Assembly: GCA_963666055.2 (NCBI GenBank)
Contig: CAXWPH010000015.1
Location: 1 to 64,000 of the forward strand
Source of the DNA: Acidobacteriota bacterium
GTDB taxonomy: Bacteria; Acidobacteriota; UBA890; WLXD01
DNA length: 64,000 bases
Reading direction: 5' to 3'
Shown: piece by piece, positions 21,832 to 47,607 of the stretch
Numbering within the stretch: position 1 is the stretch's first letter
How the letters are laid out: each line of letters begins with the position of its first letter
Translations under genes and position numbers: made by a program
Notes under the pieces: model-generated
What the model saw: the letters and a program-made list of their open reading frames with translations, nothing else
The model's database searches: none
Told to the model about the DNA's origin: nothing

Positions 21832-21862
21832 GACCCACCACACTTTCACCGCGACCTGCGAG
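21832..21862 (-). repeat. Family A dispersed element, degenerate copy abutting MITE-1
   Basis: Reverse complement CTCGCAGGTCGCGGTGAAAGTGTGGTGGGTC. Confidence 0.7.
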
Positions 21863-22134
21863 TGTCCTGTAACAGAGGTTCGTTGCATATTGCTGGGTCG
21901 AGATGGGGGCAAGCTCAAGGCGCGATGAGGATGGCGATGCGGTGTCCATCGTCGACGAATCGCAACGCTGAGATTGCCCCCATATCGACCCAGCCCTCCG
22001 GGTGGCCGCGGGACTGGCCACCTCCGGCGTCGGCCCTCCTCTGCGATACCCTCAGCATCGCTGTCGTCGAGCCTCCTTGGACTCGACTCAGTCGCGCGCG
22101 CCACAATATGCAACGAACCTCTGTTACAGGACAC
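21862..22134. mobile_element. MITE-1 with perfect 31-bp TIRs (IS630-like ends)
   Basis: GTGTCCTGTAACAGAGGTTCGTTGCATATTG (21862-21892) and its exact reverse complement (22104-22134); bounded by CGAG and CTAG; two internal hairpins. Confidence 0.9.
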
Positions 22135-24137
22135 TAGCCGCTGGCCGGCCTGCCGATCGCCGGCATGGCGCGGCGCTGTAACACCTCCTGCACGGCGCGG
22201 TGTGCCTCCAGTATGGCAGCGTCAGTGTGTGGGCTGGCGGCGGCGTCGGAGTTGGCGATCGTAATCGATCCGAAGGGCTGCCGTGCGACCACACAGGGAC
22301 GCTCGTCGCTGGTCGTGAACACCCAATCCATCGGATCGTAGAGGCTGTTGTAGGTATACGCGTATCCGTGCGACCAACGGTTGAAGGCGATGGCGACGAT
22401 GTCGCGCGCCGGATCGAAGCCACCGCCATCCAGCACCCGACCGAGTTGGTCGCGGATCCTCTCCTCCCAGGTCTCGAACGAGGTAGCGAGGAGCTCCTCG
22501 CGGCCCATCTTGTGCTGCTCCTTGCGCGTCCGCCCCGGGTAGTTCAGGAAGCCCTCGAGCGAAAGAACGATGGGCTCCTCGGGCGACTCGGCGTGTCGGA
22601 GATCGCCGAGGCTCACCGCTTGATCGAGGCCGACGGAAGAGTGGTGCATGGTCGGCGTACTAACGGAGCTCACGCCCAGTTTCACGAAAGAGTTCCAGTT
22701 GCGGAGGACAACGCTGGTGAAGACGAGCGGGCCTTTCACCGCGTACGCCAGCGCCTCCTTCTGCTTCGCTGGCATCTCGGGAACCAGATACGGGATCACA
22801 CGGTTCCAGCACGCCATGACACAGTGGCGCCCGCGAACGTGGTAGGTCCTGCCGCCGTGCACGTAGCTGACCTCAACCGCGTCGTTGCCTGAGGAATTGG
22901 TGTGCCGTGCATGCACTACCGTACTGTTGAGCCGGATGCGGGTAGTTTGGCCCTCACGGTCCAGCAGATCGTAGGCCACCCGTGCAGCCCCGACGTCCTC
23001 CTGGGTCTTGCCGGGAACGGCGTCGGGGATCAGCCATCGCACCAGGAGCCGCGTGATGGTGGCGTTGCCGTCGGGGAAATGAACCTCTTCGCTGCTTGGT
23101 CGCTGGCGTCCGTGAATTCCGCCGGGTAGGTCGGCGAGTACGCCGTCGGGCATCGGTTCGAGGTCCAGGCCGTCAAACCCCGGTTGCCCCATGCTCCACG
23201 CAAACAGCGCCGGCAGCGCGTCGGCGCCGACCGCGAACACGCTGTTGCCGGCGCCAGCGAAGAACCACATGACCTCGGGATCGACCTTCACCATCTCGAG
23301 CATGTAGTCGGTGTAGGAAATCTTCGCCAACCGCTCCTTCTTCTCGGCCGACGACAGGCCCGGGAAGTGGTCCGGTTGGTCTCCCGAGTAGAGTGCCAGG
23401 TAGTCGTGCCGGGCCTTGGGCGACAGCGGCGTCTTGGCCAGGAAATCGGCGTCGAGCCCACCGTACCCTCCGGAGCGCTTCACCAGCCGATCCTCACCCC
23501 AGGTCTCGGCATCGAAGAAGTAGGCCGATCCGAGCCCCATGCGCCGGTACATCTGCTGGCTATCGGCGTTGTCTACCACGTAGCGGTCAAGATCGATGCC
23601 GATGTCGGCCAGCAACCGCCGCGACGGCTGGTCGTAGCGCCCGTACGACTCGATGTTGTAGGTCCCGCCATTGAGCGCCAGCATACGCCCGTTGTAGTGG
23701 AACTCGTTGCGCTTGGCGTGGCCGCCGAAGTCGTCGTGGTTGTCGAGGATCAGGACGCGCGCTTCGCGGCCGATGTTCTTGACGAAAATCTGTGCCGCGG
23801 CCAGGCCGCTGATGCCGCCGCCGACCACCACCAGGTCGTAACGCTCGCCCGTGTCGACGGCATCGGAGAAGTCCCACCCGCGCTGATCGCGCATCTGATG
23901 GGCGACCTCGAACGAGCCGTCGTGGCTGCCGCGTAGCCCGTGTCGCAGTGGCGGATAGTCGGCCGGGTCCTGATGCGCGCCGCGAAGATCGTGGCCACCG
24001 GAGACCTCGGCACGAGCGCCGCGACCGAAGGTCGGCATGGCGAGCGCGCTACCTATCGGAACTGCAATGCCGTTGACGAAGTCGCGCCGCGTGATCTCAC
24101 GGTCCATACCAAGGTCGCGCCTACGGGAGTCTCCCAC
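22134..24137 (-). CDS. Spermidine dehydrogenase-like flavoprotein, copy 3
   Basis: Same motifs as copy 1, with NRWSHGYA. Confidence 0.85.
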   Translation of the reverse strand: MGDSRRRDLGMDREITRRDFVNGIAVPIGSALAMPTFGRGARAEVSGGHDLRGAHQDPADYPPLRHGLRGSHDGSFEVAHQMRDQRGWDFSDAVDTGERYDLVVVGGGISGLAAAQIFVKNIGREARVLILDNHDDFGGHAKRNEFHYNGRMLALNGGTYNIESYGRYDQPSRRLLADIGIDLDRYVVDNADSQQMYRRMGLGSAYFFDAETWGEDRLVKRSGGYGGLDADFLAKTPLSPKARHDYLALYSGDQPDHFPGLSSAEKKERLAKISYTDYMLEMVKVDPEVMWFFAGAGNSVFAVGADALPALFAWSMGQPGFDGLDLEPMPDGVLADLPGGIHGRQRPSSEEVHFPDGNATITRLLVRWLIPDAVPGKTQEDVGAARVAYDLLDREGQTTRIRLNSTVVHARHTNSSGNDAVEVSYVHGGRTYHVRGRHCVMACWNRVIPYLVPEMPAKQKEALAYAVKGPLVFTSVVLRNWNSFVKLGVSSVSTPTMHHSSVGLDQAVSLGDLRHAESPEEPIVLSLEGFLNYPGRTRKEQHKMGREELLATSFETWEERIRDQLGRVLDGGGFDPARDIVAIAFNRWSHGYAYTYNSLYDPMDWVFTTSDERPCVVARQPFGSITIANSDAAASPHTDAAILEAHRAVQEVLQRRAMPAIGRPASG

Positions 24138-24222
24138 GACGTGGCACCTCCTGCTGGTTGCTTTCGATCGGCCTCAGAAACCCGGCCGAAGGGCTGTCAC
24201 CGGTAGCGCACCCTATCACCGC

Positions 24223-24663
24223 TCAGAGTTTCGCGGCCGCGATCTTGGCCAGCGCCACGGCTGTGTCCTCCAGATCGGTGATCCCGGTGGGCTTCCCGAT
24301 CAGGTAGGTGACCGAAAGGATGAACCCGCTGCTTCCTTTCACGACCTGGAGAACGACGGCATTGATCATGCTCAACTGGAAGAACGCCTCGTCCCCGACA
24401 CCCTCAACGGCGCTCTCCGGATTCTTCGGCATCATCGCGAAGACGACTGCATCGAGCGGATCGATGGTTATCGACCCTACCGGGTCCGACGAGGTGAACG
24501 AGAACCCGTCGTTGCCGCGGCTGTCGACCTCCACCGACACACCGAGCACCCCCTCGACGTCGTCCTCGGTGAGCAACGGCTCCGACTGAGCGACCCCCAG
24601 CGTCGAGGTCAGCAGCAGGCAGAGCGCCGCAAAGAATGCCGTTCGAGCGTGTACTGCCACCAA
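24223..24663 (-). CDS. Hypothetical secreted protein
   Basis: Signal peptide ending GVA-QS; VEGVGDEAF motif; fills the gap between genes. Confidence 0.65.
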   Translation of the reverse strand: MVAVHARTAFFAALCLLLTSTLGVAQSEPLLTEDDVEGVLGVSVEVDSRGNDGFSFTSSDPVGSITIDPLDAVVFAMMPKNPESAVEGVGDEAFFQLSMINAVVLQVVKGSSGFILSVTYLIGKPTGITDLEDTAVALAKIAAAKL

Positions 24664-24888
24664 GATCCCCCGTGCAGGCCGTGATTGGAAACACCGTATC
24701 GGTAGCGGCGCGAGTTTAGCAGGGTGCCCGCCCGGCGAAGTTGGCTGCAGACTCTGTCGCCCCGGCGGTTTGGTCGCCGGCGAGCCTCCCCGCGGCCCGG
24801 CGCGGACGAGCTTCTGCTATGGTGCGGCCCGATGGCCCATCCGCGACCGCCGCACGATCTCCGGAGTGCTCTCAAGGAGACCCCCCCC

Positions 24889-26403
24889 ATGTCAACCGCG
24901 TTGAAACGATCCACCCTCGGCCTGCTCATCGTCGCGATCGTTGCTCTCGCCTTGCCCAGCGACGCACAGACCGGTGAGATCTTCGACATCGTGCTGGCGG
25001 GCGGGCGCGTGCTCGATCCGGAGACCCGGCTCGATGCGATACGTAACGTCGGCATTCGCGGCGACAGAATCGACGCGATCTCCGAGGGCCCGCTGCGGGG
25101 CGATGTGATCGTCGACGTTGCCGGATTGGTGGTGGCGCCGGGGTTCATCGACCTGCACGCCCATGGTCAGAGCAACGAGGCCAACGTCTACCAGGCCCGC
25201 GACGGCGTTACGACTGCGCTCGAGCTCGAAGGCGGTGTCGGCGATGTGGCGAGTTTCTTCAACCGTCGCCGCGGCGACTCGATCCTCAATTTCGGCGCCT
25301 CGGTAGCGCATGACTTCAATCGCGTCTGGGCGATGCCCGACAAGGCGGACGAGGTGGCGCGTCTCGAGGAGGTGTTCGCGTCGGGATCGGCGATGGACGA
25401 TGGGCTCACGGAGGTCACGCAGGCGCTCGCCCGCACCGGCTACGACCCCATCGATCGTCAGGCCATCGGCCGGCTGCGCGAGCGATTCGAACGTGGCCTG
25501 CGAGCCGGCGGACTCGGCCTCGGGGTGCCACACCAGTACTACCCCGGCGCCGACCACGACGAGATCTTCCGGGTCTTCCAGATGGCGGCCGAGTGGGATG
25601 TTCCCATCTACACGCATGTGCGTAGCATGGAGGTCGGAGCATTTCAGGAAGTCATCGCCAACGCGGCGATAACCGGCGCACCGCTGCATATCGTGCACGT
25701 CAACAGCATGAGCCTGGGCAATCTGCCGACCGTGCTGGACATGATCGGCGCTGCCCAGCGGCGGGGCATGGATATCACCACCGAGGCCTACCCGTACACG
25801 GCCGCGTCAACCGGTCTGGGCTCGGCCATCTTCGACGACGGCTGGCAAGAGCGCCTCGGCATCAGCTACGGCGATATCCAATGGGAGGACACCGGCGAAC
25901 GCCTCACAGAGGAGACCTTCAACAAGTACCGCGTCGAGGGCGGCACGGTGATCATCCATGTGATGAAGCCCGAGTGGATCGAGCTGGCCATGCGCACGCC
26001 GTTCGTCATGGTGGCTTCGGACGGCATGCCGTACGCGCCCGGCGCCCACCCGCGTAGCGCCGGAACATTCTCGCGCTTCCTGGGGTACTACGTGCGTGAG
26101 CTGGAGATCCTGCCCCTGATCGAGGCTCTGTCGAAGGTCTCGCTCATGCCGGCGCGACGCCTCGAGAAGGTCGCCCCGGCAATGGCTCGCAAGGGGCGTA
26201 TTCAGGTGGGCACCGACGCCGACATCACGGTGTTCGCGCCCGGTCGGATCATCGACACCGCTACCTTCGAGGACGACCTGTCGTTTGCCGAAGGCGTCGA
26301 GCACGTGCTGGTGAACGGCACCTTCGTGGTACGCGACGGGGAGTCCGTCGAAGGGGCACGCCCCGGTCGCCCGGTGCTCGGGAAGATGTACGCTGGCCAG
26401 TAG
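24889..26403 (+). CDS. Amidohydrolase (N-acyl-D-amino-acid deacylase-like), secreted
   Basis: APGFIDLHAH, YTHVR, HIVH, ASDG, HPRSAGTF, GTDADITVF; AAGGAG RBS. Confidence 0.87.
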   Translation: MSTALKRSTLGLLIVAIVALALPSDAQTGEIFDIVLAGGRVLDPETRLDAIRNVGIRGDRIDAISEGPLRGDVIVDVAGLVVAPGFIDLHAHGQSNEANVYQARDGVTTALELEGGVGDVASFFNRRRGDSILNFGASVAHDFNRVWAMPDKADEVARLEEVFASGSAMDDGLTEVTQALARTGYDPIDRQAIGRLRERFERGLRAGGLGLGVPHQYYPGADHDEIFRVFQMAAEWDVPIYTHVRSMEVGAFQEVIANAAITGAPLHIVHVNSMSLGNLPTVLDMIGAAQRRGMDITTEAYPYTAASTGLGSAIFDDGWQERLGISYGDIQWEDTGERLTEETFNKYRVEGGTVIIHVMKPEWIELAMRTPFVMVASDGMPYAPGAHPRSAGTFSRFLGYYVRELEILPLIEALSKVSLMPARRLEKVAPAMARKGRIQVGTDADITVFAPGRIIDTATFEDDLSFAEGVEHVLVNGTFVVRDGESVEGARPGRPVLGKMYAGQ

Positions 26404-26417
26404 GCGTCGGCGGCTGA

Positions 26418-27875
26418 CTAGTCGCGAGCGCCCGTCGCGTCGGAGGCACGAATCGACCAGAGGTGCCGCTGGGTGCGGAGCAACAAGCGATCACCGACCA
26501 TCGCCGGCGTCGCCTGGGCGAACTCCTCGAGCTTGTTGACGCCGATCAATTCGAACTCGTCGCCGGTGCCGAGAACGTACGTGTTGCCGTCTTCGCTCAG
26601 GCAAAAGATCTTGCCTTTGTAGGCCCAGGGCGACGCGGTGAAGGCGCTAGCGCCAGGGCCGATGCGCGACCGGTAGACGCGCTCGCCCGTGTCAGCATCG
26701 TATTTGGCAATGATGCCCTTGTCCTGCAGAACGTACAGGTATCCCTCGTAGAGCACTGGGGTGCTCAAGTAGGTGCCGGCGCGCCCGTCGTACCAGACCA
26801 CGTGCTCGCTGCTCGTCGCGCCGCCGCCCAGTGTGATGTCTCCAGCGGCGCCCGGCGTGATCGCCGCGATTGGCCACGAGCCGGCCCCCGGTGGCCCGGC
26901 CGTCAGGTACAGAACATCCGCGGCGGCAAACGGCGTCGGGATCGGCATGAACGACATCTTCTCCATGCGCCACAGCTCGTTTCCCTCCAGGTCGTAGCTG
27001 ATCGCCGTCTCCGGCCCCATGGTGACTAGCTCGGCACGCAACGAGTTGTTCCACACGAACGGTGACGACCAGCCAGAGTTGCGGTGCTCCCCGAGCCCGA
27101 GGCGCGCGCGACGCCAGATCTCCTTTCCGGTGCGTTTGTCGAAAGCCGCGACGAAACCTGCCTCCTCGTTGTCGTTGAGGATGTAGATGCGATCCTCATG
27201 TAGCACCGGCGAGGCACCGCCGCCGAAATCGAAATAGACCTGGTAAGGGTTGAGGGGCGTCGCCCAGAGCCGGTTGCCGTCGAAGTCGTATGCGTACAGC
27301 CCCCGGTGAGCGAAGTAGACGTATATGACCTCACCGTCGGTCACCGGCGTCTCCGAGGCGAAGCTGTTCTTGCGGTGACGCCCCACCGCCGGGTTGCCCT
27401 CGTGTACCTGTCGCTCCCAGAGAATCTGTCCGCTCTCGAGGTCGAGGCAGTAGAGCATCAGTCGGATGACGATCTCATCGGCGAGCTCCGTATCGCGCAC
27501 CTCGCTGAGGCGCATGACCTCGTCCATCTCCAGCCCCTGTTCCAGCAGCTCGGCGATGTAATCGTTGGAGAAGTCGACACCGAAGCTCGGCTGCTTCATC
27601 GGTTGATCGCTGGTAGCAGCGGTAAGGAACACCTTGTTGCCCCAGACAATCGGTGAGGACCAGCCCATGCCCGGTATCTCGGCCGACCATTCGACATTCT
27701 CCGTCCGCGACCAGGTGTCCGGCAGGTCAGGGTGGTCACCGACCGGAATCCCGGCGGGCCCGAGGAAACGAGGCCAGTTGGGCTCCTGCGGTGCGGCGAG
27801 CGCCAGACTCGCGATGATCAGCAAACTGAACGCCAGCATGGCGACGACGCGGGTCGTGGTGGGGCAGAGGCGCAC
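26418..27875 (-). CDS. Secreted PQQ-like beta-propeller protein
   Basis: NWPRFLGP, GWSSPIVWG, NSFASETPVTDG and repeated blades. Confidence 0.85.
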   Translation of the reverse strand: MRLCPTTTRVVAMLAFSLLIIASLALAAPQEPNWPRFLGPAGIPVGDHPDLPDTWSRTENVEWSAEIPGMGWSSPIVWGNKVFLTAATSDQPMKQPSFGVDFSNDYIAELLEQGLEMDEVMRLSEVRDTELADEIVIRLMLYCLDLESGQILWERQVHEGNPAVGRHRKNSFASETPVTDGEVIYVYFAHRGLYAYDFDGNRLWATPLNPYQVYFDFGGGASPVLHEDRIYILNDNEEAGFVAAFDKRTGKEIWRRARLGLGEHRNSGWSSPFVWNNSLRAELVTMGPETAISYDLEGNELWRMEKMSFMPIPTPFAAADVLYLTAGPPGAGSWPIAAITPGAAGDITLGGGATSSEHVVWYDGRAGTYLSTPVLYEGYLYVLQDKGIIAKYDADTGERVYRSRIGPGASAFTASPWAYKGKIFCLSEDGNTYVLGTGDEFELIGVNKLEEFAQATPAMVGDRLLLRTQRHLWSIRASDATGARD

Positions 27876-28000
27876 GGCATGTTCCTTCTGGAAGAAGTCA
27901 GGGTCAGGGTTCTAGCACGCCGGCAGGCCGGCCGCGGACGCTAGTACGATACCGTCAGCGGGCATCGTGCGTTGAGACACGTCAGATCAGGAGGTATCGA

Positions 28001-29035
28001 TTGGCACTCCGCCAGGCCATGCTGGCGCTCACCTGTTGCGCCATGGCCGTCTCGGTCGAGACCGCGGCAGAGCGGGTCGTGGTGGTCGGCGGTGGCATCG
28101 CCGGGCTGGCGGCGGCCCGAGATCTAAACGACGCTGGCTACGATGTCGTCGTGCTCGAGGCCAAGGATCACCTCGGCGGCCGCGCCTGGACGGATCGTGG
28201 CACCGGGCACGCCCTCGACATGGGCGCCAACTGGATCCACGGTGTCAAGGGAAATCCAATCACCGCGCTGGCAGACCAGCTCGACCTCGCCAGGGTGCCG
28301 ACTGACTACGAGAATTCCGCCGAGTACGACTTCGACGGCACCCCCGAGCCACTTTCCGGCGCCCAGTTCGGCAACTGGGAACGCACCCTCACCACCTACG
28401 CGAAGAGCTACTTGCGCAGGGCGCCAAACGCCACCGTCCAGGCGATGGTCAACGATGCGCGCGACGACGGGGATCTCGACTTCCTCAGCGACCGACAGCT
28501 CGCCTTCCTGGTGAACACGCAGCTGGAGCACGAGTTCGCCGCCGACGCCGCGTTGATGTCCGTGCGCACGCTCGACGAGGGCAGGGAGTTCCGTGGCGGC
28601 GACGTGATCTTCCCGGGAGGCTACGACGCGATCACCACGGCGATGGCCGACGGACTCGCCACCGAGCTCAATACGGTCGTCTCGGCGATCGAGTATGGCA
28701 ACTTCGGAGTGCGGGCAGTGACGGATCGGGGCACATTCGTGGGCGATCGTGCCGTGGTAACGCTACCGCTCGGGGTGCTCAAGTCGGGCGACGTGTCGTT
28801 CACGCCGGCGCTGCCCAGACAGAAGCGCAAAGCCATTGAAGCACTTGCGATGGGGGTGCTGAACAAGGTGTGGTTGGTGTTCCCGAGCGTCTTTTGGGAC
28901 GCCGACGTACATCTGCTCGGCTACCTCAGCCAGGTCAAGGGGCACTTTGCGGAGTGGCTCAATCTTTCGCGTCACACCGGCGACCCGGTATTGCTGGCGT
29001 TCAACGCCGGCGCCAAGGAGATCAAGGGGCGCTAG
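28001..29035 (+). pseudogene. Flavin amine/polyamine oxidase, C-terminally truncated
   Basis: GGGIAG, LEAKDHLGGR, DMGANWIHG, TLPLGVLK, NKV. Stops at 344 aa without the C-terminal FAGEH...GA segment. Confidence 0.75.
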
Positions 29036-29059
29036 GACACTAGCGGCTAGCAGACCGAT

Positions 29060-29464
29060 ATGCCGATTACCTACTCGAGCTCACGGCGACCTACATTGGA
29101 TCAGGTAATCGAGCTCTATCGGATCTCGACGCTGGGCGAGCGGCGGCCGATCGAAGACCGGCACGTGATGCAGGGCATGATCGACAACGCCGACCTGATT
29201 GTGACTGCCTGGAACGGCGGAGATCTCGTCGGCATCGCACAGACGCTCACCGACTACACCTACTGCGCCTACCTCGCCGACTTGGCCGTGCACATCGAAT
29301 GGCAACGCCGCGGCATCGGTGTCGAGCTGATCGAGATCACCAAGCGATGCCTCGAGCCCACCTGCTTCGTGACGCTGCTCTCGGCGCCGGCCGCCAACGA
29401 CTACTACCCGCACGTCGGTTTCGAGCACAACCCACGCGCCTGGACGTGGTGGCCGCCGCGCTGA
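29060..29464 (+). CDS. GNAT N-acetyltransferase
   Basis: YLADLAV..WQRRGIG and YYPHVGF. Confidence 0.88.
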   Translation: MPITYSSSRRPTLDQVIELYRISTLGERRPIEDRHVMQGMIDNADLIVTAWNGGDLVGIAQTLTDYTYCAYLADLAVHIEWQRRGIGVELIEITKRCLEPTCFVTLLSAPAANDYYPHVGFEHNPRAWTWWPPR

Positions 29465-29500
29465 CTGTTGGACAAAATCGACGCACCCTTCTGGAGATTC

Positions 29501-29545
29501 TTGACGGTCCGATGGTGGTAAACTATTATTTAGTCTTCCTAACTA
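29501..29545 (+). promoter_or_regulatory. Sigma70 promoter with adjacent operator
   Basis: TTGACG (29501-29506), 17-bp spacer, TATTAT (29524-29529), then TAGTCTTCCTAACTA (29531-29545). Confidence 0.7.
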
Positions 29546-29565
29546 TCTAACCGACGATACGCCCC

Positions 29566-30015: not shown

Positions 30016-30047
30016 CTTCCTGAGTGGTACTGTCGTCGCCAACTAGT

Positions 30048-30062
30048 TAGTTAGCCGAACTT
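30048..30062. promoter_or_regulatory. Second putative MarR operator
   Basis: TAGTTAGCCGAACTT fits the palindrome TAGTTAGnCTAACTA shared with 29531-29545. Confidence 0.55.
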
Positions 30063-30067
30063 CTCAA

Positions 30068-38944: not shown

Positions 38945-38947
38945 ACG

Positions 38948-39319: not shown

Positions 39320-39443
39320 CAGCCACTCCTGTTCGGGCGGTCCCTGGTCACCTCGGGAACGCCAAAAGGCTCGTATCGTACCCGACGAGCGACGCAGATT
39401 GTCGCGCCGGCGGCGCCGCCTCGGGTGTAGCGTGCGGAACACT

Positions 39444-39490
39444 CGCAAGACCCTGTCGCCGGACCCGCCACACTTCCACCACCGCCTTAG
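39444..39490 (-). repeat. Family A dispersed element starting at the glnS stop codon
   Basis: Reverse complement CTAAGGCGGTGGTGGAAGTGTGGCGGGTCCGGCGACAGGGTCTTGCG. Confidence 0.82.
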
Positions 39491-41889
39491 CCAGCGAGGC
39501 GCTCGCGTAGCAGCCGCTGGACGATGCCGCCGTCGGCACCGGCTCCCACCTCGGCCATCACCTGGCCCATGAAGAATCCCATCAACGCTTCACGCCCGGC
39601 TCGATACTCGTCGACCTTGTCGGGGTTGGCGGCAACCACGCGGTCGACGACCACGGCGAGCGCCGCCTCGTCGACAACCGCGTCCAGACCATGCTGTCGC
39701 ACGATAGCGTGCGGATCACCGCCCTCGGCAACCAGCAGCTCGAACACCAGACGGCCAGCGCGGGCGGTGATCTCCCCGGTCTCGACCATCGCCACCAAGG
39801 CGCCGAGCGTACCTCCGTCAAAGGGCAGGTCGTCGAGGCGACGCTCTTTGGTGGCCGGTAGCACTTCGTTGACGATCCACTTTGCCGTGGCTGCCGCATC
39901 GGCCGGCGCAGCGACGGCGGCCTCGAAGAAGTCCGCCAGCGCAGGATACCCGGTGAGCACGTCGGCATCGGCGGCGCTCAGGTCGAGCTCGGCTCGATAG
40001 CGCTCATAGCGCGACGCCAGATCGGCATCGGAATCGCGAGCCGCCGCACGCGCTTCGGCCGGCGTGCGCTTGCGGCGCTTGCGTCCCTCGTGGTCGCACT
40101 CCGTGCCGATCGCTGAGGCTGGCTCGCCATCGACCGCAGCCCCACCGGGTGCATCCGCGCGCCGCGCCGGCTCGTCCGCCGCCAGAGCCTTCGTCCACGA
40201 GTCACGCAACGTGACCACGCGGTTGAAGATCGGCGCGCCTGGCTCCGAATCGACCGGGTCGCTGAAAAAGTAGCCTTGCCGCTCGAACTGCAGATGGGTA
40301 CCAGGCATGGTCTTGGCCACGCTGGGCTCTGCCAGGGCTCCCTCCACCACGTTGAGCGAGTCGGGGTTCAGATCAGCGATCAGATCTCCGTCTCGTCCGG
40401 GGTCGGCGACGGCGAACAGCCGGTCGTAGAGCCGCACGGCGACAGCGACCGCGTGCTCCGCCGAAACCCAGTGCACCGTCCCCTTCACCCGCCGTCCGTC
40501 TGGTGTGGACCCGCCGCTGGTCTCGGGGTCGTAGCTGCAGCGTAGCTCCACGACCTCGCCGGAATCGTCCTTGACGACGTCGTCGCAACGGATCACGTAG
40601 CCGTACCTGAGCCTCACCTCGCGACCCGGAGCCAAGCGGAAGAACTTCGGCGGTGGCTGCTCCATGAAGTCCTCGCGCTCGATGTACAGCTCGCCGCCGA
40701 ACGGCACCGGGCGCGAACCCTCCCTCGGCACATCGTGGGGCCAGAGCGGAGCATCGATCTGTTCCACCTTGCCGGCCGGCCAGTTGGTGACCACCACCTT
40801 GAGCGGCCGCAGCACGCACATCATCCGCGGGGCCTCGTGGTTCAGATCATCGCGGATGGCGTACTCGAGCATGGCGATGTCGACGCGGCCCTCGGTCTTG
40901 GCCACACCAACCAGATCGCAGAAGTTGCGAATCGCCGCCGGCGTCACTCCGCGGCGCCGCAACCCGGCAATCGTCGGCATGCGCGGGTCGTCCCAACCGT
41001 CGACGTGCGCGCCTTCCACCAGCTGCAGCAACTTGCGCTTGCTGGTGATCGTGTAGTCGACATTGAGACGCGAAAACTCGAACTGGCAGGGCCTCGCCGA
41101 CCCCAGATCGAGGCTGTCGATGTACCAGTCGTAGAGCTCGCGGTTGTTCACGAACTCGAGCGTGCAGAGCGAGTGCGTGACCCCCTCGATGGCGTCGGAC
41201 TGGCCATGCGCCCAGTCATAGAACGGGTAGATGCACCACTCGTCGCCCCTCCGGTAGTGGTGCGCGTGACGAATTCGATACATCAGCGGATCACGCATCT
41301 TCATGTTCGGGTGGGCCATGTCGACGCGAGCGCGTAGCACCTTGGCACCGTCGGGGAACTCGCCAGCGCGCATGCGCGTGAAGAGATCGAGGTTCTCTGC
41401 TGCCGAGCGGTCGCGATAAGGGCTCTGGCGTCCGGGTTCGGTCACCGTGCCGCGATAGGCACGGATCTCTTCCTCGGTCAGGTCGTCGACGTAGGCCCTG
41501 CCCTTGCGAATCAGCTCGACGGCCCAATCGTACAGACGCTCGAAGTAGTCGGAGGCGTAGTACTCGTGCTCGCCCCAGTCGAACCCAAGCCACCGTACGT
41601 CGGCCTTGATCGCGTCGACATAGCGGGGATCTTCGGTGGCCGGGTTGGTGTCGTCGAAGCGCAGGTTGCAGTGCCCGCCAAACTCCGCCGCAATGCCGAA
41701 GTCGACACAGATCGCCTTGGCGTGTCCGATATGAAGGAAGCCGTTGGGCTCGGGGGGAAACCGGGTCACGATGCCGTCGTACTTCCCGGTGGCGAGGTCA
41801 TCGCGCACGATCGTACGGACGAAGTTGTTGCCGGACTCCCGGTCGGGGCCTACTCCTGGTTCCAAATCAGGCCTGCTGTCGGCGGCCAA
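39487..41889 (-). CDS. glnS: Glutamine--tRNA ligase with C-terminal GatB/YqeY domain
   Basis: [36 protein letters not shown], followed by a GatB/YqeY-like tail (GFFMGQVM). TTG start inferred. Confidence 0.93.
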
Positions 41890-41993
41890 AGCTCCCCCAT
41901 GCGACCGAGCGCAGAGAGTGCGCCACACGCCACCGCACCGTCGCGACACGCAGCGGCGCCGCCCAGCAGCATCGCAGACTCAGCGAACCTTGG

Positions 41994-42042
41994 CTAGCGG
42001 GCCGTGGTGGAAGTGTGGTGGGCCCGGCGACAGGGTCTTGCG
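41994..42042 (+). repeat. Family A dispersed element, full-length copy
   Basis: CTAGCGGGCCGTGGTGGAAGTGTGGTGGGCCCGGCGACAGGGTCTTGCG. Confidence 0.85.
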
Positions 42043-42082
42043 CCCGCAACCCCCCTATTGGCTGAAGGGTTGCGTCGACGGC

Positions 42083-43402
42083 TCAGTTCGACGAGATGCG
42101 GTAGAGATAGCGTCCGCCTCGCAGGTACATCTCGCCACCGACGATCGCCGGGGAACCGTCGAACCCGTCATCCAGGCTGTTCTGCGCCAGCACCTTGAAC
42201 TCCGGCCCATTCTCGAGCACGAGGCCTCCGCCATCACGGCCGACGAGATACACGCGGCCGGCCGCCCCCACGGGCGAGGCATAGACCTCGCGTAGCCCCG
42301 CCAATCGCTGTGGGCCATAGCGACGCTGGCCGGTGCTGGCGGTGTACACGGTCAGAATCGGATCGTTGCTCTTCAAGACGTACAGCGCATCGTCGTAAAG
42401 CAGCGGTGAGGGCACATAGGGAGTGTCGCGATCGGCCTGCCAAGCGGTCGCGTCGGTATCGCCGATGTCGCCCACGGCCGTGTCGAGGCGCACGGCGCGC
42501 AGCGCGCTACCGCGGAATCCGGCCATCAGGTAGACGACGCCATCGGCGAATACCGGCGAGGGAATCGAGTTCAGCGTCAGGCCCGGCCCGTCCCAGATCA
42601 GCTCACCGTTGGAGAAATCATAACTGCGTACGCGATTCGTACCCGCCGTGATCACCTGTGTGCGTCCGGCGTGCTCGAGCACGAGCGGCGTGCCCCAGGT
42701 GGTGATCTCGTCGCGGGCGGTGCGCCAGATCTCCTCACCGGTGCGCTTGTCGAGCGCCACGATGTACGACGGTCCCTCGTGGTCCCAGGTAATCACCAGC
42801 GTATCGCCGTACAGCGCGGGTGAGCTCCCCTCGCCGAACTCGCGGCGGGTGGACATGTCGCCCAGATCCTTCTCCCAGACGAGATTGCCGTTCATGTCGT
42901 AGCAGAAGATGCCGCGCGAGCCGAAGTACGCCCACACGTGCTCGCCGTCGGTCATGGCGGAGGCCGACGCGTAGGAGTTGTTGACCTGCCGCGCCTCGTG
43001 CGGGCGCTCCTCGCGCGCTGTGCGCTCCCAGGCCACCGAACCGTCGGCGCGGTTGATCGCCATGACCTTGAAACGCAACGGGCTAGTGGGGCTCGGTGCG
43101 CCGCGGCGTGCTCGGTCGGCAGCGGCGGACGCGTCGGGCTCTCCCACGGCGGTGAGAACGTAGACGCGATCCCCCCACACCACGGGTGTGCCGGAGCCAC
43201 GCCCCGGAATGGCGATCTTCCAGGCGACGTTCTTCGTTTCGCTCCACTCCAACGGGGGATCGCCGTCCGGTGAAACACCCGACATCAGCGGGCCGCGCCA
43301 CACCGGCCATTGGCTTTGGCTCTGGAGCGCAGCAGACCCCACCGGGCTGGCGATCGCGATCGCGCCCAACAAAACGCCAACAACTACATGCCTCAACGCC
43401 AT
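42083..43402 (-). CDS. Secreted PQQ-like beta-propeller protein
   Basis: QWPVWRGP, NSYASAS..TDG, PYVPSPLL; GGAGG RBS. Confidence 0.85.
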   Translation of the reverse strand: MALRHVVVGVLLGAIAIASPVGSAALQSQSQWPVWRGPLMSGVSPDGDPPLEWSETKNVAWKIAIPGRGSGTPVVWGDRVYVLTAVGEPDASAAADRARRGAPSPTSPLRFKVMAINRADGSVAWERTAREERPHEARQVNNSYASASAMTDGEHVWAYFGSRGIFCYDMNGNLVWEKDLGDMSTRREFGEGSSPALYGDTLVITWDHEGPSYIVALDKRTGEEIWRTARDEITTWGTPLVLEHAGRTQVITAGTNRVRSYDFSNGELIWDGPGLTLNSIPSPVFADGVVYLMAGFRGSALRAVRLDTAVGDIGDTDATAWQADRDTPYVPSPLLYDDALYVLKSNDPILTVYTASTGQRRYGPQRLAGLREVYASPVGAAGRVYLVGRDGGGLVLENGPEFKVLAQNSLDDGFDGSPAIVGGEMYLRGGRYLYRISSN

Positions 43403-43648
43403 ACCTCCGGCTGGTCGACAGAACGTGCCGGCGATGCGGAAGCTTGAGCCACCGCCACCTGCAGTCACAGACACCTACACATCTTCGCTTCTTCCGGCGG
43501 CGACCGCACGACCGTTGCGCAGAAGCTACCGTAAAGAATTGTCAACGACGCCGTCTACACTGCCGGTCGTGCCGGCACGCTATCTGCGGCACCAGCGAGA
43601 CCAGCGTGCCATACCCACCAGAGCACCCGACCAGAGGAAACAGAGCCG

Positions 43649-45028
43649 ATGACCGAAAACTACGACGCCCTCATCATCGGGACCGGACAGGCCGGTCCCT
43701 CGCTGGCGGCTCGTCTGGCCGGCGAAGACTGGAAGGTCGCGATCATCGAGCGCAGCCGGTTCGGCGGCACGTGCGTGAATGAGGGATGCACGCCAACCAA
43801 GGCGCTGGTGGCAAGCGCCCGGGTCGCCCACGTCGCACGGCGAGCAGCCGACTACGGTGTCGAGATCGACGGCTCCATCGCCGTCAACATGGCTGCCGTC
43901 AAAGCAAGGAAGGACCGCATCGTCCAGCGCTCCACCACGAACGTGGAGAAGTGGCTGCGGGGCCTGGACAATTGCACTGTGTACCAGGGCCATGCCCGCT
44001 TCGAAGGGTCCTCGACGGTCAGGGTCGGCGACACGTGTCTGCATGCCGACAAGATCTTCGTCAACGTCGGCACACGCCCGTCGGTGCCACCGATGCCCGG
44101 TCTGAACGAGGTTGAGTACCTGACCAGCTCGCAGATGATGGACGTGGACTTCGTGCCCGAACACCTGGTGATTATCGGCGGCAGCTACATCGGCCTCGAG
44201 TTCGGGCAGATGTACCGTCGATTCGGCAGCGAGGTCACCATCGTCCAGCGCGGCCCCAGGTTGATACCGCGCGACGATGAGGACGTGTCGGAGGCGGTGC
44301 GCGAGATCCTCGCCAACGAGGGCATCGACATCCGCCTGAACGCCGAGTGCACCGAGGCCGAGGCACAGGGCGAGGGCGTGCGTGTGCGGCTCGACTGCGA
44401 CGCCGGTGCCCCCGCGGTCGAGGGCTCGCATCTTCTGCTGGCCGTCGGCAGGCGTCCCAACACCGACGATCTGGGTCTCGAGACGACGGGCATCGAGGTG
44501 AACGAGCGCGGCACCATCGTGGTGGACGAGGAGCTGCAAACCGCCGAGCCTGGCATCTGGGCACTAGGCGACTGCAACGGACGGGGCGCGTTCACTCACA
44601 CCTCCTACAACGACTACGAGATCGTCGCCGCCAACCTGCTCGGCGGCGACACGCGGCGGGTCAGCGACCGCTTCCTGTGCTACGGCCTGTTCATCGATCC
44701 ACCGCTGGCGCGCGTCGGACTGACCGAGGCCGAGGTGCGGCGCTCAGGCCGCCCCGCGCTGGTTGCCAAGCGCCCGATGAGCCGGGTGTCGCGGGCTATC
44801 GAGAAGGGCGAAACGCAAGGCTTCATGAAGATCGCCGTCGACGCCGAGACCAAGCTGATATTGGGCGCGGCAATCCTCGGAACCGGTGGCGACGAGAGCA
44901 TCCACTGCATCATCGACGTGATGTATGCCAAGGCCCCATACACGGTCATCGAGCGCGCCGTCCACATCCATCCGACCGTTGCGGAGCTCATTCCCACCCT
45001 GCTGAGCGATCTCGAGCCGCTGCAGTAG
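43649..45028 (+). CDS. Pyridine nucleotide-disulfide oxidoreductase (MerA/LpdA-like)
   Basis: GTGQAG, GGTCVNEGCTP, GGSYIGLE, GD, HIHPT.AE. Confidence 0.9.
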   Translation: MTENYDALIIGTGQAGPSLAARLAGEDWKVAIIERSRFGGTCVNEGCTPTKALVASARVAHVARRAADYGVEIDGSIAVNMAAVKARKDRIVQRSTTNVEKWLRGLDNCTVYQGHARFEGSSTVRVGDTCLHADKIFVNVGTRPSVPPMPGLNEVEYLTSSQMMDVDFVPEHLVIIGGSYIGLEFGQMYRRFGSEVTIVQRGPRLIPRDDEDVSEAVREILANEGIDIRLNAECTEAEAQGEGVRVRLDCDAGAPAVEGSHLLLAVGRRPNTDDLGLETTGIEVNERGTIVVDEELQTAEPGIWALGDCNGRGAFTHTSYNDYEIVAANLLGGDTRRVSDRFLCYGLFIDPPLARVGLTEAEVRRSGRPALVAKRPMSRVSRAIEKGETQGFMKIAVDAETKLILGAAILGTGGDESIHCIIDVMYAKAPYTVIERAVHIHPTVAELIPTLLSDLEPLQ

Positions 45029-45069
45029 CCGCGACCGGGCCATCCCGTATCGACTGGTTAGACACGACG

Positions 45070-45729
45070 TCAGCGAGCGCCGCTGCGTGGGCGCAAGCCG
45101 TCGAGCAAGATCGTGGTGAGGATCTCCGGGAGCTCGTCGCGCCGCTCATCGACCGCTTCGTCGCCCAGCAGTCGCTGCAGGATCAGCCCCAGGATGGTCG
45201 CCGTTACCACTCTGGCGGCGAGCGCCGGATCCGCCGTGTGCACGCTACCGCGGGCCGCCAGATCGGCCAACAAGGTCTCGCCCAGCTCGGTTGCCGGCCG
45301 CAGTACCTGCTCGTAGTAGTCGCGTCGATGCTGCGGGTCGATGAGCAGCTCGGGCCACGTGGCGCGCAGCAGCTCGAGCCGCTGCCAGAGGGTGTCTAGC
45401 CGATGCCTGAGATAGGCGCCAAGCAGCTCGCGAAAACCCGACGCCGGCCGTTGGCCCAGGTCGATCTTGCGGCGCTCGGCCTCGGTGAGGCGACCCAGAA
45501 GGCCGAGCAACAGATCGCTCTTGTCGCTGAAGTAGTTGTAGATCGTCCCGTCTGCCACTCCGGCGCGTCGAGCGATCGCCCGTACGGTGGCGCGCTGATA
45601 GCCGACCGCGGCGATCTCCTCGGTGGCGGCATCGAGAATGTGCTCGCGGCGTCGGCGGGCTCGATCGACGCTGTTCGGGGATCCGCGGTGTGTCCCCGGC
45701 CGGGGTTCAGGCAAGAAGGCGCTTTCCAT
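45070..45729 (-). CDS. TetR/AcrR family regulator
   Basis: ILDAA...GY..ATVRAIARRAGVADGTIYNYF.DK. Confidence 0.92.
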   Translation of the reverse strand: MESAFLPEPRPGTHRGSPNSVDRARRRREHILDAATEEIAAVGYQRATVRAIARRAGVADGTIYNYFSDKSDLLLGLLGRLTEAERRKIDLGQRPASGFRELLGAYLRHRLDTLWQRLELLRATWPELLIDPQHRRDYYEQVLRPATELGETLLADLAARGSVHTADPALAARVVTATILGLILQRLLGDEAVDERRDELPEILTTILLDGLRPRSGAR

Positions 45730-45750
45730 AGCCGTTCATCTAGTAGAATC

Positions 45751-45788
45751 TGAATGATCATTCATTCAAATAATGAACGATCATTCAT
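45751..45788. promoter_or_regulatory. Two tandem palindromic operators upstream of tetR
   Basis: TGAATGATCATTCA (45751-45764, perfect) and ATGAACGATCATTCAT (45773-45788, one mismatch). Confidence 0.8.
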
Positions 45789-45881
45789 CACATCGCAAGG
45801 TCCGCCTCGTACAACATCGAGTGGCGCTCTGCTCACCCTCGTCGCACCTCGCCCGCCACCATCGGCAGCTTGCCTTCGCCT

Positions 45882-45930
45882 CGCATGACCCTGTCGCCAG
45901 GTCCGCCACACCTCCACCACGGCCTGCTGG
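45882..45930 (-). repeat. Family A dispersed element
   Basis: Reverse complement CCAGCAGGCCGTGGTGGAGGTGTGGCGGACCTGGCGACAGGGTCATGCG. Confidence 0.82.
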
Positions 45931-45992
45931 CAGCCGGCGCGGTCCGCGGCTACAGTCATGGCGCCGCTCCGACCAAGCGAGGCGAACCTCCG

Positions 45993-47303
45993 TTGCAAGC
46001 ACTGCCGACGCCAGATGAGCTCCGTATTCGGCGTCTTGGCATGCCTCGGCAAGCCTCGCCGCTAGTGTCGCGGGGCGTCGTGTTGGTAGCCGACGATCTC
46101 GGCGTCCTGATCCCGTCGGACACCGAAACGCTGGGCGACGTCGAGGGTCCGGTGCCGGCGTTCGAAGCCGCCGGGCCGCGCCATCGGGTCTTCTTCGACC
46201 CGCCGAAAACGAGCATCGGCATCGTCACCTGCGGCGGATTGTGCCCGGGGATCAACGATGTCATCCGCGCCATCGTGCTCACCGCGTGGCACGGGTACGG
46301 TGTGCGCCGGGTTCTCGGATTCCGCTACGGCTACGCCGGCCTGTCGGCGTCTTCCGGACTGCCGCCGATGACGCTCGAGCCCGACGTCGTACACGACATC
46401 CATGCCCTTGGCGGGACCATCTTGGGCTCCGGCCGCGGACCCGAGAAGATCGCCGATATGGTCGACGAGTTGCAGCGACGTCAGATCGACGTGCTCTTCG
46501 CCATCGGCGGTGGCGGCACCCTGGCCGGCGCTTCGCAGTTGGCAGCGGAGATCACCCGACGCGATCTGCCTATCGCCGTGGTCGGTATTCCGAAGACCAT
46601 CGACAATGACATCCTGTGGCTGGAGCGGAGCTTCGGGTTCGCTACCGCGGTGAACGAAGCGGCACGATCGATCGTCGCGGCTCACACCGAAGCACACGCG
46701 GTGCGCAACGGGATCGGGTTGGTGAAGCTCATGGGCCGTTGCTCTGGCTTCATCGCCGCCCATGCGACGTTGGCCCACAACCAGGTCAACTTCTGCCTCA
46801 TACCCGAGTCGCCCTTCTCGCTCCAAGGAGAGAGCGGCTTCCTACGTCTGCTCGAGCGAAGAGTAGAAGCCCGAGGCCACGCGGTCATCGTCGTCGCCGA
46901 GGGCGCTGGCCAGGAGCACACCGGGCGCAAGGGGCCGGCTCGCGATGTCTCCGGCAACCCCACTCTTGCCGACATCGGCAGCTTTCTGAGAGAGCGCATC
47001 TTGGAGCACTTCCGCTCCCACGGCATCGCCGCGGCGGCGAAGTATATTGACCCGAGCTATCTGATCCGCAGCCTGCCGGCTAACGCCTTCGATTCGGCTC
47101 TTTGCCTGACTCTCGGCCAGCACGCCGTGCACGCAGGACTCAGTGGCCGAACCGACATGCTGGTGGGTACCTGGGGCGGGCGCTATACGCACGTGCCGCT
47201 ACCCTTGGCAACCAGCGAGCGGCGGCAGATCGACGTTCAAGGCGCAGTATGGCAACGGGTGCTCGAGGCCACCGGTCAGCCAGCCGTCATGCGCGGTGAC
47301 TGA
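45993..47303 (+). CDS. 6-phosphofructokinase, PfkA family group II type
   Basis: IVTCGGLCPG.N, GGTILGS, PKTIDND, KLMGR, AEGAG, KYIDPSY; GGGGT replaces GGDGT. Start codon uncertain. Confidence 0.88.
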   Translation: MQALPTPDELRIRRLGMPRQASPLVSRGVVLVADDLGVLIPSDTETLGDVEGPVPAFEAAGPRHRVFFDPPKTSIGIVTCGGLCPGINDVIRAIVLTAWHGYGVRRVLGFRYGYAGLSASSGLPPMTLEPDVVHDIHALGGTILGSGRGPEKIADMVDELQRRQIDVLFAIGGGGTLAGASQLAAEITRRDLPIAVVGIPKTIDNDILWLERSFGFATAVNEAARSIVAAHTEAHAVRNGIGLVKLMGRCSGFIAAHATLAHNQVNFCLIPESPFSLQGESGFLRLLERRVEARGHAVIVVAEGAGQEHTGRKGPARDVSGNPTLADIGSFLRERILEHFRSHGIAAAAKYIDPSYLIRSLPANAFDSALCLTLGQHAVHAGLSGRTDMLVGTWGGRYTHVPLPLATSERRQIDVQGAVWQRVLEATGQPAVMRGD

Positions 47304-47330
47304 GCGCAACCTTGCGGTTCGCCGCGCGTC

Positions 47331-47607
47331 TAGCAGGGTGCTGAAAAACTCTGGTGAGTCTGGCCGGTGGGTCTTGCTGGCGAGATCAAGGAAGAGCGAC
47401 GAGGGCGATGCCAGGGTCATCGTCGAGGAGCTCTGACGCTGAGATCGCCAGCAAGACCCACCCGCCCAACGGGTTACGGCGTCGTGGAGCCATCTGCAGC
47501 GTTGGCCCTCCTGGACGATACGACAAGCATCGCCTGCGTCGCGCCGCCTTGCATCTGGCCCCACGACGCCGTAACCAGACCCACCAGAGTTCTTCAGCAC
47601 CCTGCTA
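47331..47607. mobile_element. MITE-2 with 33-bp TIRs (31/33 identical)
   Basis: TAGCAGGGTGCTGAAAAACTCTGGTGAGTCTGG (47331-47363) versus the reverse complement of 47575-47607; begins at CTAG; two internal hairpins with 18- and 16-bp perfect stems. Confidence 0.9.

Follow-up and report, generated by a model that had tools for sequence, protein, structure and literature searches.

Two mobile elements in the window

The window, i.e. the whole stretch of 64,000 nucleotides that was analysed, contains two MITEs (miniature transposable elements with inverted repeats), denoted MITE-1 and MITE-2. Both are short, non-coding, bounded by terminal inverted repeats (TIRs), and multicopy, and each measures 273 bp between the duplicated TA copies. 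They comprise the following features:

21814 to 21858, minus strand: decayed end of family A, in whose CTAG MITE-1 is inserted
21862 to 22134: MITE-1, with IS630-type ends and two convergent cores
21862 to 21892, plus strand: left TIR of MITE-1; the left TA copy at 21860-21861 is mutated to GA
21896 to 21990, plus strand: left hairpin of MITE-1, outer stem and core (99 bits, a training sequence)
21916 to 21970, plus strand: core 1, from CAAGG to ACGCTG; left end 54 nt away
21994 to 22002, minus strand: central mini-hairpin of MITE-1, CCC-GGA-GGG, in GNA triloop register
22025 to 22079, minus strand: core 2; right end of MITE-1 55 nt away
22104 to 22134, minus strand: right TIR of MITE-1; a TA follows at 22135-22136
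47333 to 47605: MITE-2, with IS5/IS1182-type ends
47333 to 47363, plus strand: left TIR of MITE-2
47387 to 47441, plus strand: core 3; left end of MITE-2 54 nt away
47465 to 47473, plus strand: central mini-hairpin of MITE-2, CCC-AAC-GGG, not GNA
47497 to 47551, minus strand: core 4; right end of MITE-2 54 nt away
47575 to 47605, minus strand: right TIR of MITE-2

A preliminary description of this DNA had reported two MITEs with four hairpin cores, and these are present where it placed them. Its span for MITE-2 (47331-47607) contains the element, 47333-47605, together with both TA copies (47331-47332 and 47606-47607). The cores were described as a head-to-head pair; they are indeed paired and inverted, but their orientation is convergent (plus, then minus). 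With one core copy on each strand, the module would be readable in either direction, as had been proposed. The TIR arms of MITE-1 and MITE-2 are complementary over 42 nt (90%) and 33 nt (94%), and the two end types, described as unrelated, have only 11 of 30 positions in common.

The left target site of MITE-1 reads CGAG instead of CTAG due to the mutated TA, and the TA on its right belongs to the TAG stop of an ORF on the minus strand (22134-24137). MITE-2 is flanked by a phosphofructokinase gene on one side and a kinase-domain gene on the other. In the copy of MITE-2 from genome G524, the central loop is GAA.

Target sites, ends, and transposases

Both MITEs duplicate TA within CTAG. The inner G and C of this target are fixed and the outer bases vary independently; a 4-bp duplication of CTAG was rejected, and in family B the outer 4-mers are unlike in six of nine cases. 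Genome comparison revealed that MITE-1 is missing from the orthologous site in G524 and G585, and that the orthologous site of MITE-2 in G585 is empty, with a single TA.

The ends of MITE-1 match an IS630 end at 22 of 24 bases. The same genome harbors an IS630 bearing ends of this kind, which duplicates TA in CTAG and whose transposase lies on contig C6 at about 346 kb. The ends of MITE-2 match at 19 of 24 bases an IS5/IS1182-type IS with CAGG ends (L397; NCBIfam transpos_IS5_4), located in CTAG and taken from a viral contig, not from this genome; this 1.5-kb IS encodes a transposase and lacks the core. MITE-1 and MITE-2 are non-autonomous, TA-duplicating transposons with ends from IS630 and IS5/IS1182-type ISs, in agreement with the two unrelated transposase systems proposed earlier. 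No core match was found inside autonomous ISs in 55 loci; 12 IS630-related loci gave matches in three cases, in each of which a MITE adjoins the end of the IS. The resident IS5 (8 copies) is not the mover of these two MITEs, since it has a TTAA target and different ends, although locus L047 has similar ones. Blastn yielded no meaningful match of either MITE to plasmids.

The preliminary description had also considered an HUH/RAYT nuclease, a link that was not supported. This genome harbors no HUH Y1 transposase or RAYT, and none lies beside the repeats; Y1 genes were present in 7 of the 14 genomes with the core and in 29 of the 46 without it, i.e. without association, and the richest core carriers lack Y1/HUH transposases.

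Ends appear to be exchanged between elements. Hybrids with the crossover inside the core were seen, G524 harbors mixed-end elements, and the core tree, although poorly resolved, requires 28 end-class changes compared with a minimum of four.

Fold and covariation of the core

The four cores of the window align gap-free over 95 columns, and the consensus given in the preliminary description is invariant among them. Since a single 66-nt core folds just modestly better than its shuffles (z -0.9 to -2.3), the evidence for structure comes from covariation and not from energy. In an alignment of 135 distinct cores, which was fitted to the model, 88.1% of the cells are paired, and the covariation score amounts to 0.626, against 0.153 for shuffled and at most 0.091 for slid alignments. 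An independent MAFFT alignment of 13 representatives gives 83.3% paired cells, so that the conserved single-stranded structure suggested earlier is borne out by both. MAFFT alignments that mix spacer lengths misalign, and model R2 was built on an alignment with two of six rows misaligned at the 3' side.

Two G.A tandems enclose a lone pair, which is Watson-Crick in all 132 rows with letters, 35 of which carry double changes; when collected by pattern with this position left free, 56 of 57 distinct cores retain a Watson-Crick pair. A non-canonical C.A/A.G swap is seen in 56 of 57 short cores and in 31 of 32 cores of the ERIC type (see below). The apical motif consists of a G(N)A/GA tandem adjoining a G.T pair. 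Stems are rewritten across phyla with the loops unchanged. Loop-letter conservation is partly built in, because the family was gathered with patterns fixing these letters; for 23 cores recovered with the model only, conservation of the loop letters amounts to 60-100%. The spacer of ERIC-type cores measures 10-13 nt in six of 30 and 20-22 nt in 24 of 30 cases, with none at 14-19 nt. The commonest core in this genome (111/256) is without a Watson-Crick middle stem. Judged from the alignments, the core fold is under selection, and perfection of a palindrome by template switching is ruled out by invariant mismatches beside covarying pairs.

Copies and distribution

The further copies that the preliminary description had proposed to search for are numerous: 267 are present in the 5.7-Mb genome (profile search, at least 24 bits; best score in the reversed genome, as control, 13.1 bits), and others were found in additional phyla. 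Neighboring cores are convergent in 108 cases, divergent in one, and in tandem in three. The 108 two-core elements mostly span 260-280 bp, and single-core forms of 160 bp are common. The core was detected in 15 or more phylum-level groups, where it is combined with dozens of end types, and in 14 of 61 genomes of the phylum; the cultured Herbaspirillum chlorophenolicum is among the carriers. Beyond the preliminary description, it is not confined to the two elements, exists in the 160-bp form, and carries the basal loop of ERIC. Whatever the end sequence, 90 of 140 distinct arms have a TA at 51-57 nt ahead of CAAGG, and the usual distance of the core from the terminal TA is 52-56 nt. Nested insertions and hybrids are common in this genome, where family A is the most frequent (377 ends), and the assembly yielded no autonomous element having A- or B-type ends. 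Among flanking gene families, none exceeds 3/140 or 4/93, and no gene class is enriched.

No Rfam 15 family reached the gathering threshold for the window elements and 30 other loci; only generic hairpins matched the cores, far below threshold. Two metatranscriptomes contained only 33-43-base pieces, uninformative as they come from other contexts. The GC skew of contig C15 changes sign several times and is therefore of no use for assessing replichore bias.

MITE interiors are usually regarded as decayed transposon or free sequence. In a recent census, 97.4% of MITE sequences are reported as genus-confined (PMC11602168). Here, a MITE interior retains a defined non-canonical fold from phylum to phylum, with replacement of the ends.

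Relation to ERIC

ERIC (IRU, RU-1), a 127-bp MITE of enterobacteria and Vibrio, has been known for more than 30 years. E. coli ERIC has the same basal loop as the core, CAAGG/ACGCNG, and so have ERIC-type repeats of Gammaproteobacteria and Bacillota. On its other strand, the E. coli consensus reads GCAAGGCGGC...GCCAACGCAGC (PMC2759123), and the counterpart in core 4 is GCAAGGCGGC...GCCAACGCTGC, with 10/10 and 10/11 bases equal. The position that covaries is C.A in this consensus and T.A in the aceF-lpd copy of ERIC. The window cores show the hallmarks of the ERIC-type core, a class defined in this analysis and not a published family: the CAAGG/ACGCNG loop between two stems and the C.A/A.G covariation.

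A model built only from ERIC-type repeats matches core 1 with 33 bits, core 3 with 27.9 bits, core 4 with 23.2 bits, and core 2, the weakest of the four, with 12.6 bits (E 0.34). In the reverse direction, the window-derived model gives just 9.2 bits (E 1.6) on ERIC. A model of six intermediate repeats matches three of the window cores, with E-values of 1.4e-7 to 1.6e-4, as well as the aceF-lpd ERIC (E 0.0036).

Window MITEs and ERIC also share TA at both termini (for ERIC, PMC2229807 Table 1) and a rod hairpin, and their cores share the apical G.A tandem adjoining G.T. They differ in size (273 bp with two cores; ERIC 127 bp with one), in TIRs (31 bp, IS630- or IS5-type; ERIC 7 bp, TATA-type), in spacer (about 9 nt plus a second G.A tandem; ERIC 22 nt), and in apical stem sequence. 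The window MITEs are not ERIC proper, lacking a length of about 127 bp and short TATA-type TIRs; compared with the ERIC central inverted repeat, their architecture is alike but the letters differ.

As the basal loop is that of ERIC, the module is less novel in kind but wider in scope. According to PMC2229807, no DNA motif besides the TIRs had been found in ERIC. Full-text search of the literature found no description of the core outside ERIC, nor of an ERIC superfamily, and the main text of a preprint (bioRxiv 10.64898/2026.10.21.760802) mentions neither ERIC nor MITE. The class-4 repeat of Geobacter metallireducens (PMC2700814) has a different sequence; the Figure S8 families of that paper may bear on the novelty of the core.

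Comparison with other known systems

REPINs (REP doublets), which are moved by RAYT, consist of two inverted hairpin units, occur in many intergenic copies, and are probably recognized as ssDNA. The window MITEs resemble them in all three respects; unlike REPINs, they possess long TIRs and a TA duplication and lack a GTAG/CGTC tag. An identity as REPIN/RAYT or IS200/IS605 was rejected, with no Y1 gene in the genome and no cross-genome association. A kink-turn consists of a 3-nt bulge followed by one tandem G.A; this identity was likewise discarded, the core having two tandems that bracket a covarying single pair and no 3-nt bulge on the 3' strand.

The RUP elements of Streptococcus pneumoniae are IS630-mobilized MITEs whose TIRs also match an IS630 end and which duplicate TA; no structure or function signature is reported for their interior (PMC2229807). 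Here, unlike in RUP, one constrained interior is combined with both IS630-type and IS5/IS1182-type ends. The Bacillus bcr1 repeat, as described in PMC3184786, is likewise MITE-like, with two stem-loops and compensatory changes; it measures 155 bp, has 5-bp direct repeats, and is found in one genus. The primosome assembly sites of phiX174 and ColE1 are G.A-rich ssDNA rods as well, but were rejected, as they lack the CAAGG/ACGC loop and do not match the model. A phage priming signal was rejected as well: the short-core pattern gave no match in viral contigs, and in the ERIC-type pattern search, the 3' motif occurred in just 10 of 131, versus 3 in controls.

Possible roles of the core

The reading that is tentatively preferred, although its chance is put somewhat below even, is that the core serves as a strand-specific folded ssDNA docking site for a putative host factor and thereby favors the spread of the element. 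The core would fold on a strand exposed by replication, transcription, or cruciform extrusion, and the binder would recognize the basal CAAGG/ACGCNG loop together with the apical G(N)A/GA tandem beside G.T, both non-canonical and separated by roughly one or two helical turns. The convergent pair would provide one folded copy per strand. Elements would exchange their ends by recombining within the conserved core and by inserting into one another at CTAG, so that the core may outlive its transposases. The candidate factor would be widely conserved in hosts, with the benefit lying in the element's own copying or survival. Counted for this reading are the invariant mismatches, the C.A/A.G covariation, the spacer phasing, and the end exchange, as well as a selfish pattern (14/61 genomes, polymorphic sites, no enriched flanking gene family). 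Counted against it is that known ssDNA priming signals are unlike the core, besides the frequent core without middle stem.

The main rival, considered doubtful, is a role as RNA: elements at TAG stops or in intergenic gaps would be co-transcribed, and a conserved protein, either a nuclease or one that binds RNA, would recognize the folded transcript, so that insertions would be tolerated or of use; the convergent pair would serve either direction of transcription. The linker between the cores speaks rather for DNA. Of 32 distinct double elements, 22 have a linker of the form CC-GNA-GG, in which each of the four bases is seen at N; the other ten linkers, including that of MITE-2, are not GNA. 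d(cGNAg) is described as an unusually stable DNA loop (PMC3201870), and an RNA UNCG loop is what the GNA linker gives as its reverse complement. The third linker pair fits the triloop register in 22/22 and the alternative RNA UNCG register in 0/22, a test on a 3-bp stem in related sequences that comes down to one T-A change. Among 96 apical loops, two are GNRA and none UNCG, i.e. no RNA tetraloop is preferred. Single cores show no sense bias relative to genes (sense to antisense, 8:8 in other genomes and 8:12 here), and ERIC-type singles are antisense in 17 of 21 cases, which are not independent. Linker register, apical-loop counts, and missing sense bias are counted for DNA over RNA; neither does the lack of an enriched gene class among the flanks favor an RNA role.

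Several observations point the other way and are counted against the docking site or for RNA. Two sets show a non-random orientation to genes, the ERIC-type singles given above and the double elements of this genome (37/52), so that transcription seems to matter. The four end-poor copies of the ERIC type that neighbor rRNA or tRNA genes all lie on the transcribed strand; one copy sits in a T-box leader. Of 57 cores, 49 have their more stable fold on the purine strand with RNA parameters, and 42 do so with DNA parameters. RNA accommodates the conserved tandem G.A, the G.U, and the C.A/A.G swap just as well. In Yersinia, ERIC transcripts are reported to alter mRNA stability via an RNase E site in an orientation-dependent manner (PMC2229807; PMC10969869, citing De Gregorio 2005); as given in the latter source, however, this site lies in the 3' TIR of ERIC, outside the core.

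It is improbable that the core is itself a mobilization signal, with a putative enzyme cutting about 55 nt off at the hairpin base and the IS-like ends being remnants or helpers. The recurrent TA before CAAGG, some ERIC-type copies without an IS-like end, and the missing autonomous partner of the abundant family A would fit such a signal. The ends, however, agree with genuine IS ends at 19-22 of 24 bases, the resident IS630 likewise duplicates TA in CTAG, the richest carriers are devoid of Y1/HUH transposases, and the end-to-core distance is different in ERIC-type elements. Plain common descent, in which interiors drift, ends are nest-swapped, and covariation stems from palindrome repair without any function, is very improbable: hybrids and nested insertions are common here and related sequences can beat shuffle controls, but such repair would remove the G.A and AAGG/ACGC mismatches, which are invariant, cannot give the non-Watson-Crick C.A/A.G swap in two distant subfamilies, and does not fit stems rewritten around fixed loops across phyla.

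A broader extension of the docking-site reading, itself rather unlikely, would make ERIC one branch of pan-bacterial folded-ssDNA modules that dock a universal replication or repair factor via two phased non-canonical motifs, the module rather than the transposon being a long-lived selfish unit, which has time and again acquired its ends from unrelated TA-targeting transposons. The findings on the core tie ERIC to a much larger family and name the exact bases under selection; together with the matched IS630 transposase in the genome, this makes the function of the ERIC core testable in E. coli.

Two elements with different ends and a common core

Both MITEs proposed in the preliminary description are present in the window, each exactly 273 bp long between duplicated TA:

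21862-22134, MITE-1, IS630-type ends, cores 1 and 2
47333-47605, MITE-2, IS5/IS1182-type ends, cores 3 and 4

Their ends indeed differ (the end types are identical at just 11 of 30 bases), and the four cores, the hairpin modules between them, align without gaps as claimed, starting 54, 55, 54, and 54 nt inside the nearer end of their element. Folding of both strands gives the same rod on the purine-rich strand of all four cores, the opposite strand folding worse. An Rfam search with the window elements, as had been suggested, yields no match. Very probably, both are MITEs that duplicate TA, and their IS630- or IS5/IS1182-type ends enclose a folded core under selection, which occurs across phyla and is of the type found in ERIC, the 127-bp MITE of enterobacteria and Vibrio.

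Remnants also occur in the window. An IS630-type end fragment lies at 12110-12143, and eight further end remnants, of family A (see below), lie at 16266, 32913, 37417, 39488, 41998, 45926, 51932, and 55258, all without core. At the TAG stop of each of three tandem paralogous ORFs (17479-24137; ~670 aa, DNA 81-91% identical, weak flavin-oxidoreductase matches) lies a remnant of an end from these element families, which marks this site as a repeated target.

Copies in the genome and across bacteria

Further copies, sought as the preliminary description had proposed, are numerous: a profile search finds 267 cores in the genome of the window (G000) at ≥24 bits, the reversed genome reaching at most 13.1 bits. 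Neighbouring cores ≤300 bp apart form 112 pairs (108 convergent, 1 divergent, 3 tandem), and 51 cores are single. Elements take two forms, ~270 bp with two cores and ~160 bp with one. Their ends belong to five or more families: A (377 ends), B (MITE-2; 50), C (48), D (42), and E (5), where C and D, both of MITE-1 type, have overlapping end sets. Clustered at 80% identity, the 256 full cores fall into 14 groups. The commonest core, the left one of family A (111 copies, e.g. L018), has purine-purine pairs in place of the middle stem, and a Shine-Dalgarno-like run precedes an ATG whose open frame runs through the element. At C11:160078-160360, four tandem 83-bp half-elements arose by nested insertion into a family-A core, at the CTAG of its loop. 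Two cores that are longer or divergent, L026 (C14:532800-533200) and L028 (C15:1569300-1569700), lack IS-like ends and are flanked by another repeat; the ERIC-type model described below gives L028 21 bits.

The core pattern recurs at no fewer than 110 loci of GTDB genomes, 80 of them with titles, and at least 121 metagenome loci; viral contigs give no matches. Titles of the matches listed, mostly metagenome bins of which a few are possibly misbinned, name Acidobacteriota, Gemmatimonadota, Planctomycetota, Myxococcota, Pseudomonadota, Spirochaetota, Campylobacterota, Bdellovibrionota, Omnitrophota, Nitrospirota, Saccharibacteria, Verrucomicrobiota, Actinomycetota, Krumholzibacteriota, Eisenbacteria, Bacillota, and Bacteroidota. 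A model search of five genomes, including one isolate and one closed chromosome, finds 7-70 copies apiece; within the phylum of G000, occurrence is patchy (14/61 genomes). TA stands 51-57 nt ahead of CAAGG in 90 of 140 distinct arms, and this with ~60 different six-base end words in front, some being offsets of one another.

Transposition and exchange of ends

Since the bases directly inside the TA are fixed and those outside vary independently, insertion duplicates TA, with CTAG as the preferred context. At the site orthologous to that of MITE-2, genome G585 is empty with a single TA and genome G524 holds a family-B copy in opposite orientation; MITE-1 is absent from its orthologous site in both. 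Two transposase systems, as had been claimed, fit the ends. The MITE-1 end equals that of the one IS630 of G000 at 20/24 bases and that of an IS630 in G494, a genome of the same family, at 22/24; the MITE-2 end shares only 9-11/24 with these and 19/24 with L397, a 1.5-kb IS5/IS1182-type element (transpos_IS5_4). The sole intact IS630 of G000 (L244, C6:345033-348467) is itself inserted in a family-A remnant, at its CTAG.

The proposal that the core is cargo also stands: no core was found in 55 loci among which are the ISs just named, and of 12 further IS630-related loci 3 give matches, each due to a MITE inserted in the CTAG of the IS, so that the core belongs to the non-autonomous forms. MITE-2-type ends carry other cargo too, since six small elements without core match (L391, L395, L396, L411, L420, L422) pair them with different interiors.

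Hybrids reveal the route by which ends change: in G000 the element at C15:2034449-2034713 has one B and one D end with the crossover within a core, and G524 has elements with D/A and D/E ends. On a tree of 76 cores, in which only 11/73 branches are well supported, at least 28 switches between the five end classes are required, against a minimum of 4 and 41 when shuffled.

Fold of the core

Read inwards, the fold runs from an outer stem, long and variable, through an invariant C-G pair to a basal loop of AAGG(C/A) over (A/G)ACGCN; above it come a 5-bp variable stem, a G.A tandem, a single pair, then G(N)A/GA, a stem of 7 bp that includes a G.T pair, and a free loop of 4-8 nt. The loop letters are set by the search pattern, and are 60-100% conserved in 23 cores found via the model alone. 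The core fold is under selection. Paired cells amount to 83.3% in 13 MAFFT-aligned representatives and to 88.1% in 135 model-aligned cores, where covariation, as first suspected from the closing stems, reaches 0.626 against ≤0.091 for slid partners, all fold counts being inflated by relatedness of the sequences. The lone pair between the G.A tandems is Watson-Crick in 132/132 rows with letters of the model alignment and in 56/57 distinct cores. The uppermost position of the basal loop, at which the search pattern left both bases free, is C.A in 31 of 57 cores, A.G in 25, and A.A in 1.

Relationship to ERIC

Between its stems, the ERIC copy in E. coli aceF-lpd contains CAAGG and ACGCCG; at its apex, a G.A tandem lies beside G.T. 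The window model aligns these motifs, yet scores only 9.2 bits (E 1.6). In the basal loop, core 4 and the E. coli ERIC consensus printed in PMC2759123 agree at 10/10 and 10/11 bases.

CAAGG with the ERIC-type apical hairpin occurs in 53 of 250 Gammaproteobacteria genomes (G044 excluded; reversed control, 2 genomes) and, with up to 20 copies, in 14 of 201 genomes of the Bacillota-lineage phylum of genome G002 (control, 8 genomes with one match each). The 3' motif, which lies outside the pattern, stands at mirror distance in 38/63 matches against 1/63 controls, and the C.A/A.G swap recurs in 31/32 of these repeats. Their spacer measures 10-13 nt (6/30) or 20-22 nt (24/30) with none in between; a variant (L148, L157, L163, L172) has 26-28 nt and a basal loop closing on GATTGG in place of ACGCNG. 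A model trained on six short-spacer ERIC-type repeats, picked for loop letters and without window sequence, ranks three window cores on top in the 64 kb (33, 27.9, and 23.2 bits) and the remaining one fifth (12.6 bits, E 0.34), and detects ERIC at E 0.0036; given how the training set was picked, what this shows is a frame in common, not a discovery made independently. MITE-1 and MITE-2 are not themselves ERICs, from which they differ in length, ends, and apical sequence; what they carry is an ERIC-type core. Searches of the open-access literature found neither the cargo reading of these MITEs nor the ERIC link in print.

Possible role of the core

Tentatively, the core would serve, folded as ssDNA, as a docking site to the advantage of its element. 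Several sequence features would back a DNA structure. The linker of 22 among 32 distinct double elements reads CC-GNA-GG, N being all four bases; in 22/22 the triloop register is three pairs deep, and the third pair of the RNA UNCG register on the other strand is never gained. PMC3201870 describes d(cGNAg) as a DNA loop of very high stability. Apical loops avoid RNA tetraloops, and single short cores have no sense bias.

That the core acts as an RNA element is rather unlikely, although reviews describe ERIC transcripts as influencing mRNA stability (PMC2229807, PMC10969869), and each of four end-poor ERIC-type copies next to rRNA and tRNA genes lies in sense (4/4). Transcription matters somehow, as ERIC-type singles are antisense in 17/21 cases and double elements of G000 are oriented 37 to 15, counts that derive from heuristic gene calls with many loci unclassified.

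The HUH/RAYT co-occurrence raised in the preliminary description is not supported: G000 has no Y1/HUH transposases, and Y1 is found in 7/14 core-positive versus 29/46 core-negative genomes (P 0.53). No gene family is enriched beside core loci. The phiX174 and ColE1 priming sites, considered as counterparts, do not match the core. It is improbable that the core is its own mobilisation signal. Neutral descent of a shared core is very improbable, because palindrome repair cannot yield the non-canonical C.A/A.G swap or fixed mismatches beside rewritten stems.

ERIC-type copies near genes

In genome G436, with four matches, an ERIC-type core lies on the sense strand of the 16S-23S rRNA spacer (L185, L193, L199), and cores at L147 (a tandem pair), L150, and L156 end ≤~30 nt upstream of tRNA genes, also in sense. 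Four gammaproteobacterial genomes (L143, L144, L160, L167) have one between gap and pgk, antisense to the operon; its stems have diverged among them, which suggests a long-kept, possibly domesticated copy. A T-box leader contains an ERIC-type element (L198:1340-1763). At L187:1465-2141, a group II intron starts beside an ERIC-type core, apparently within a second copy, and such hairpins may be targets of these introns.
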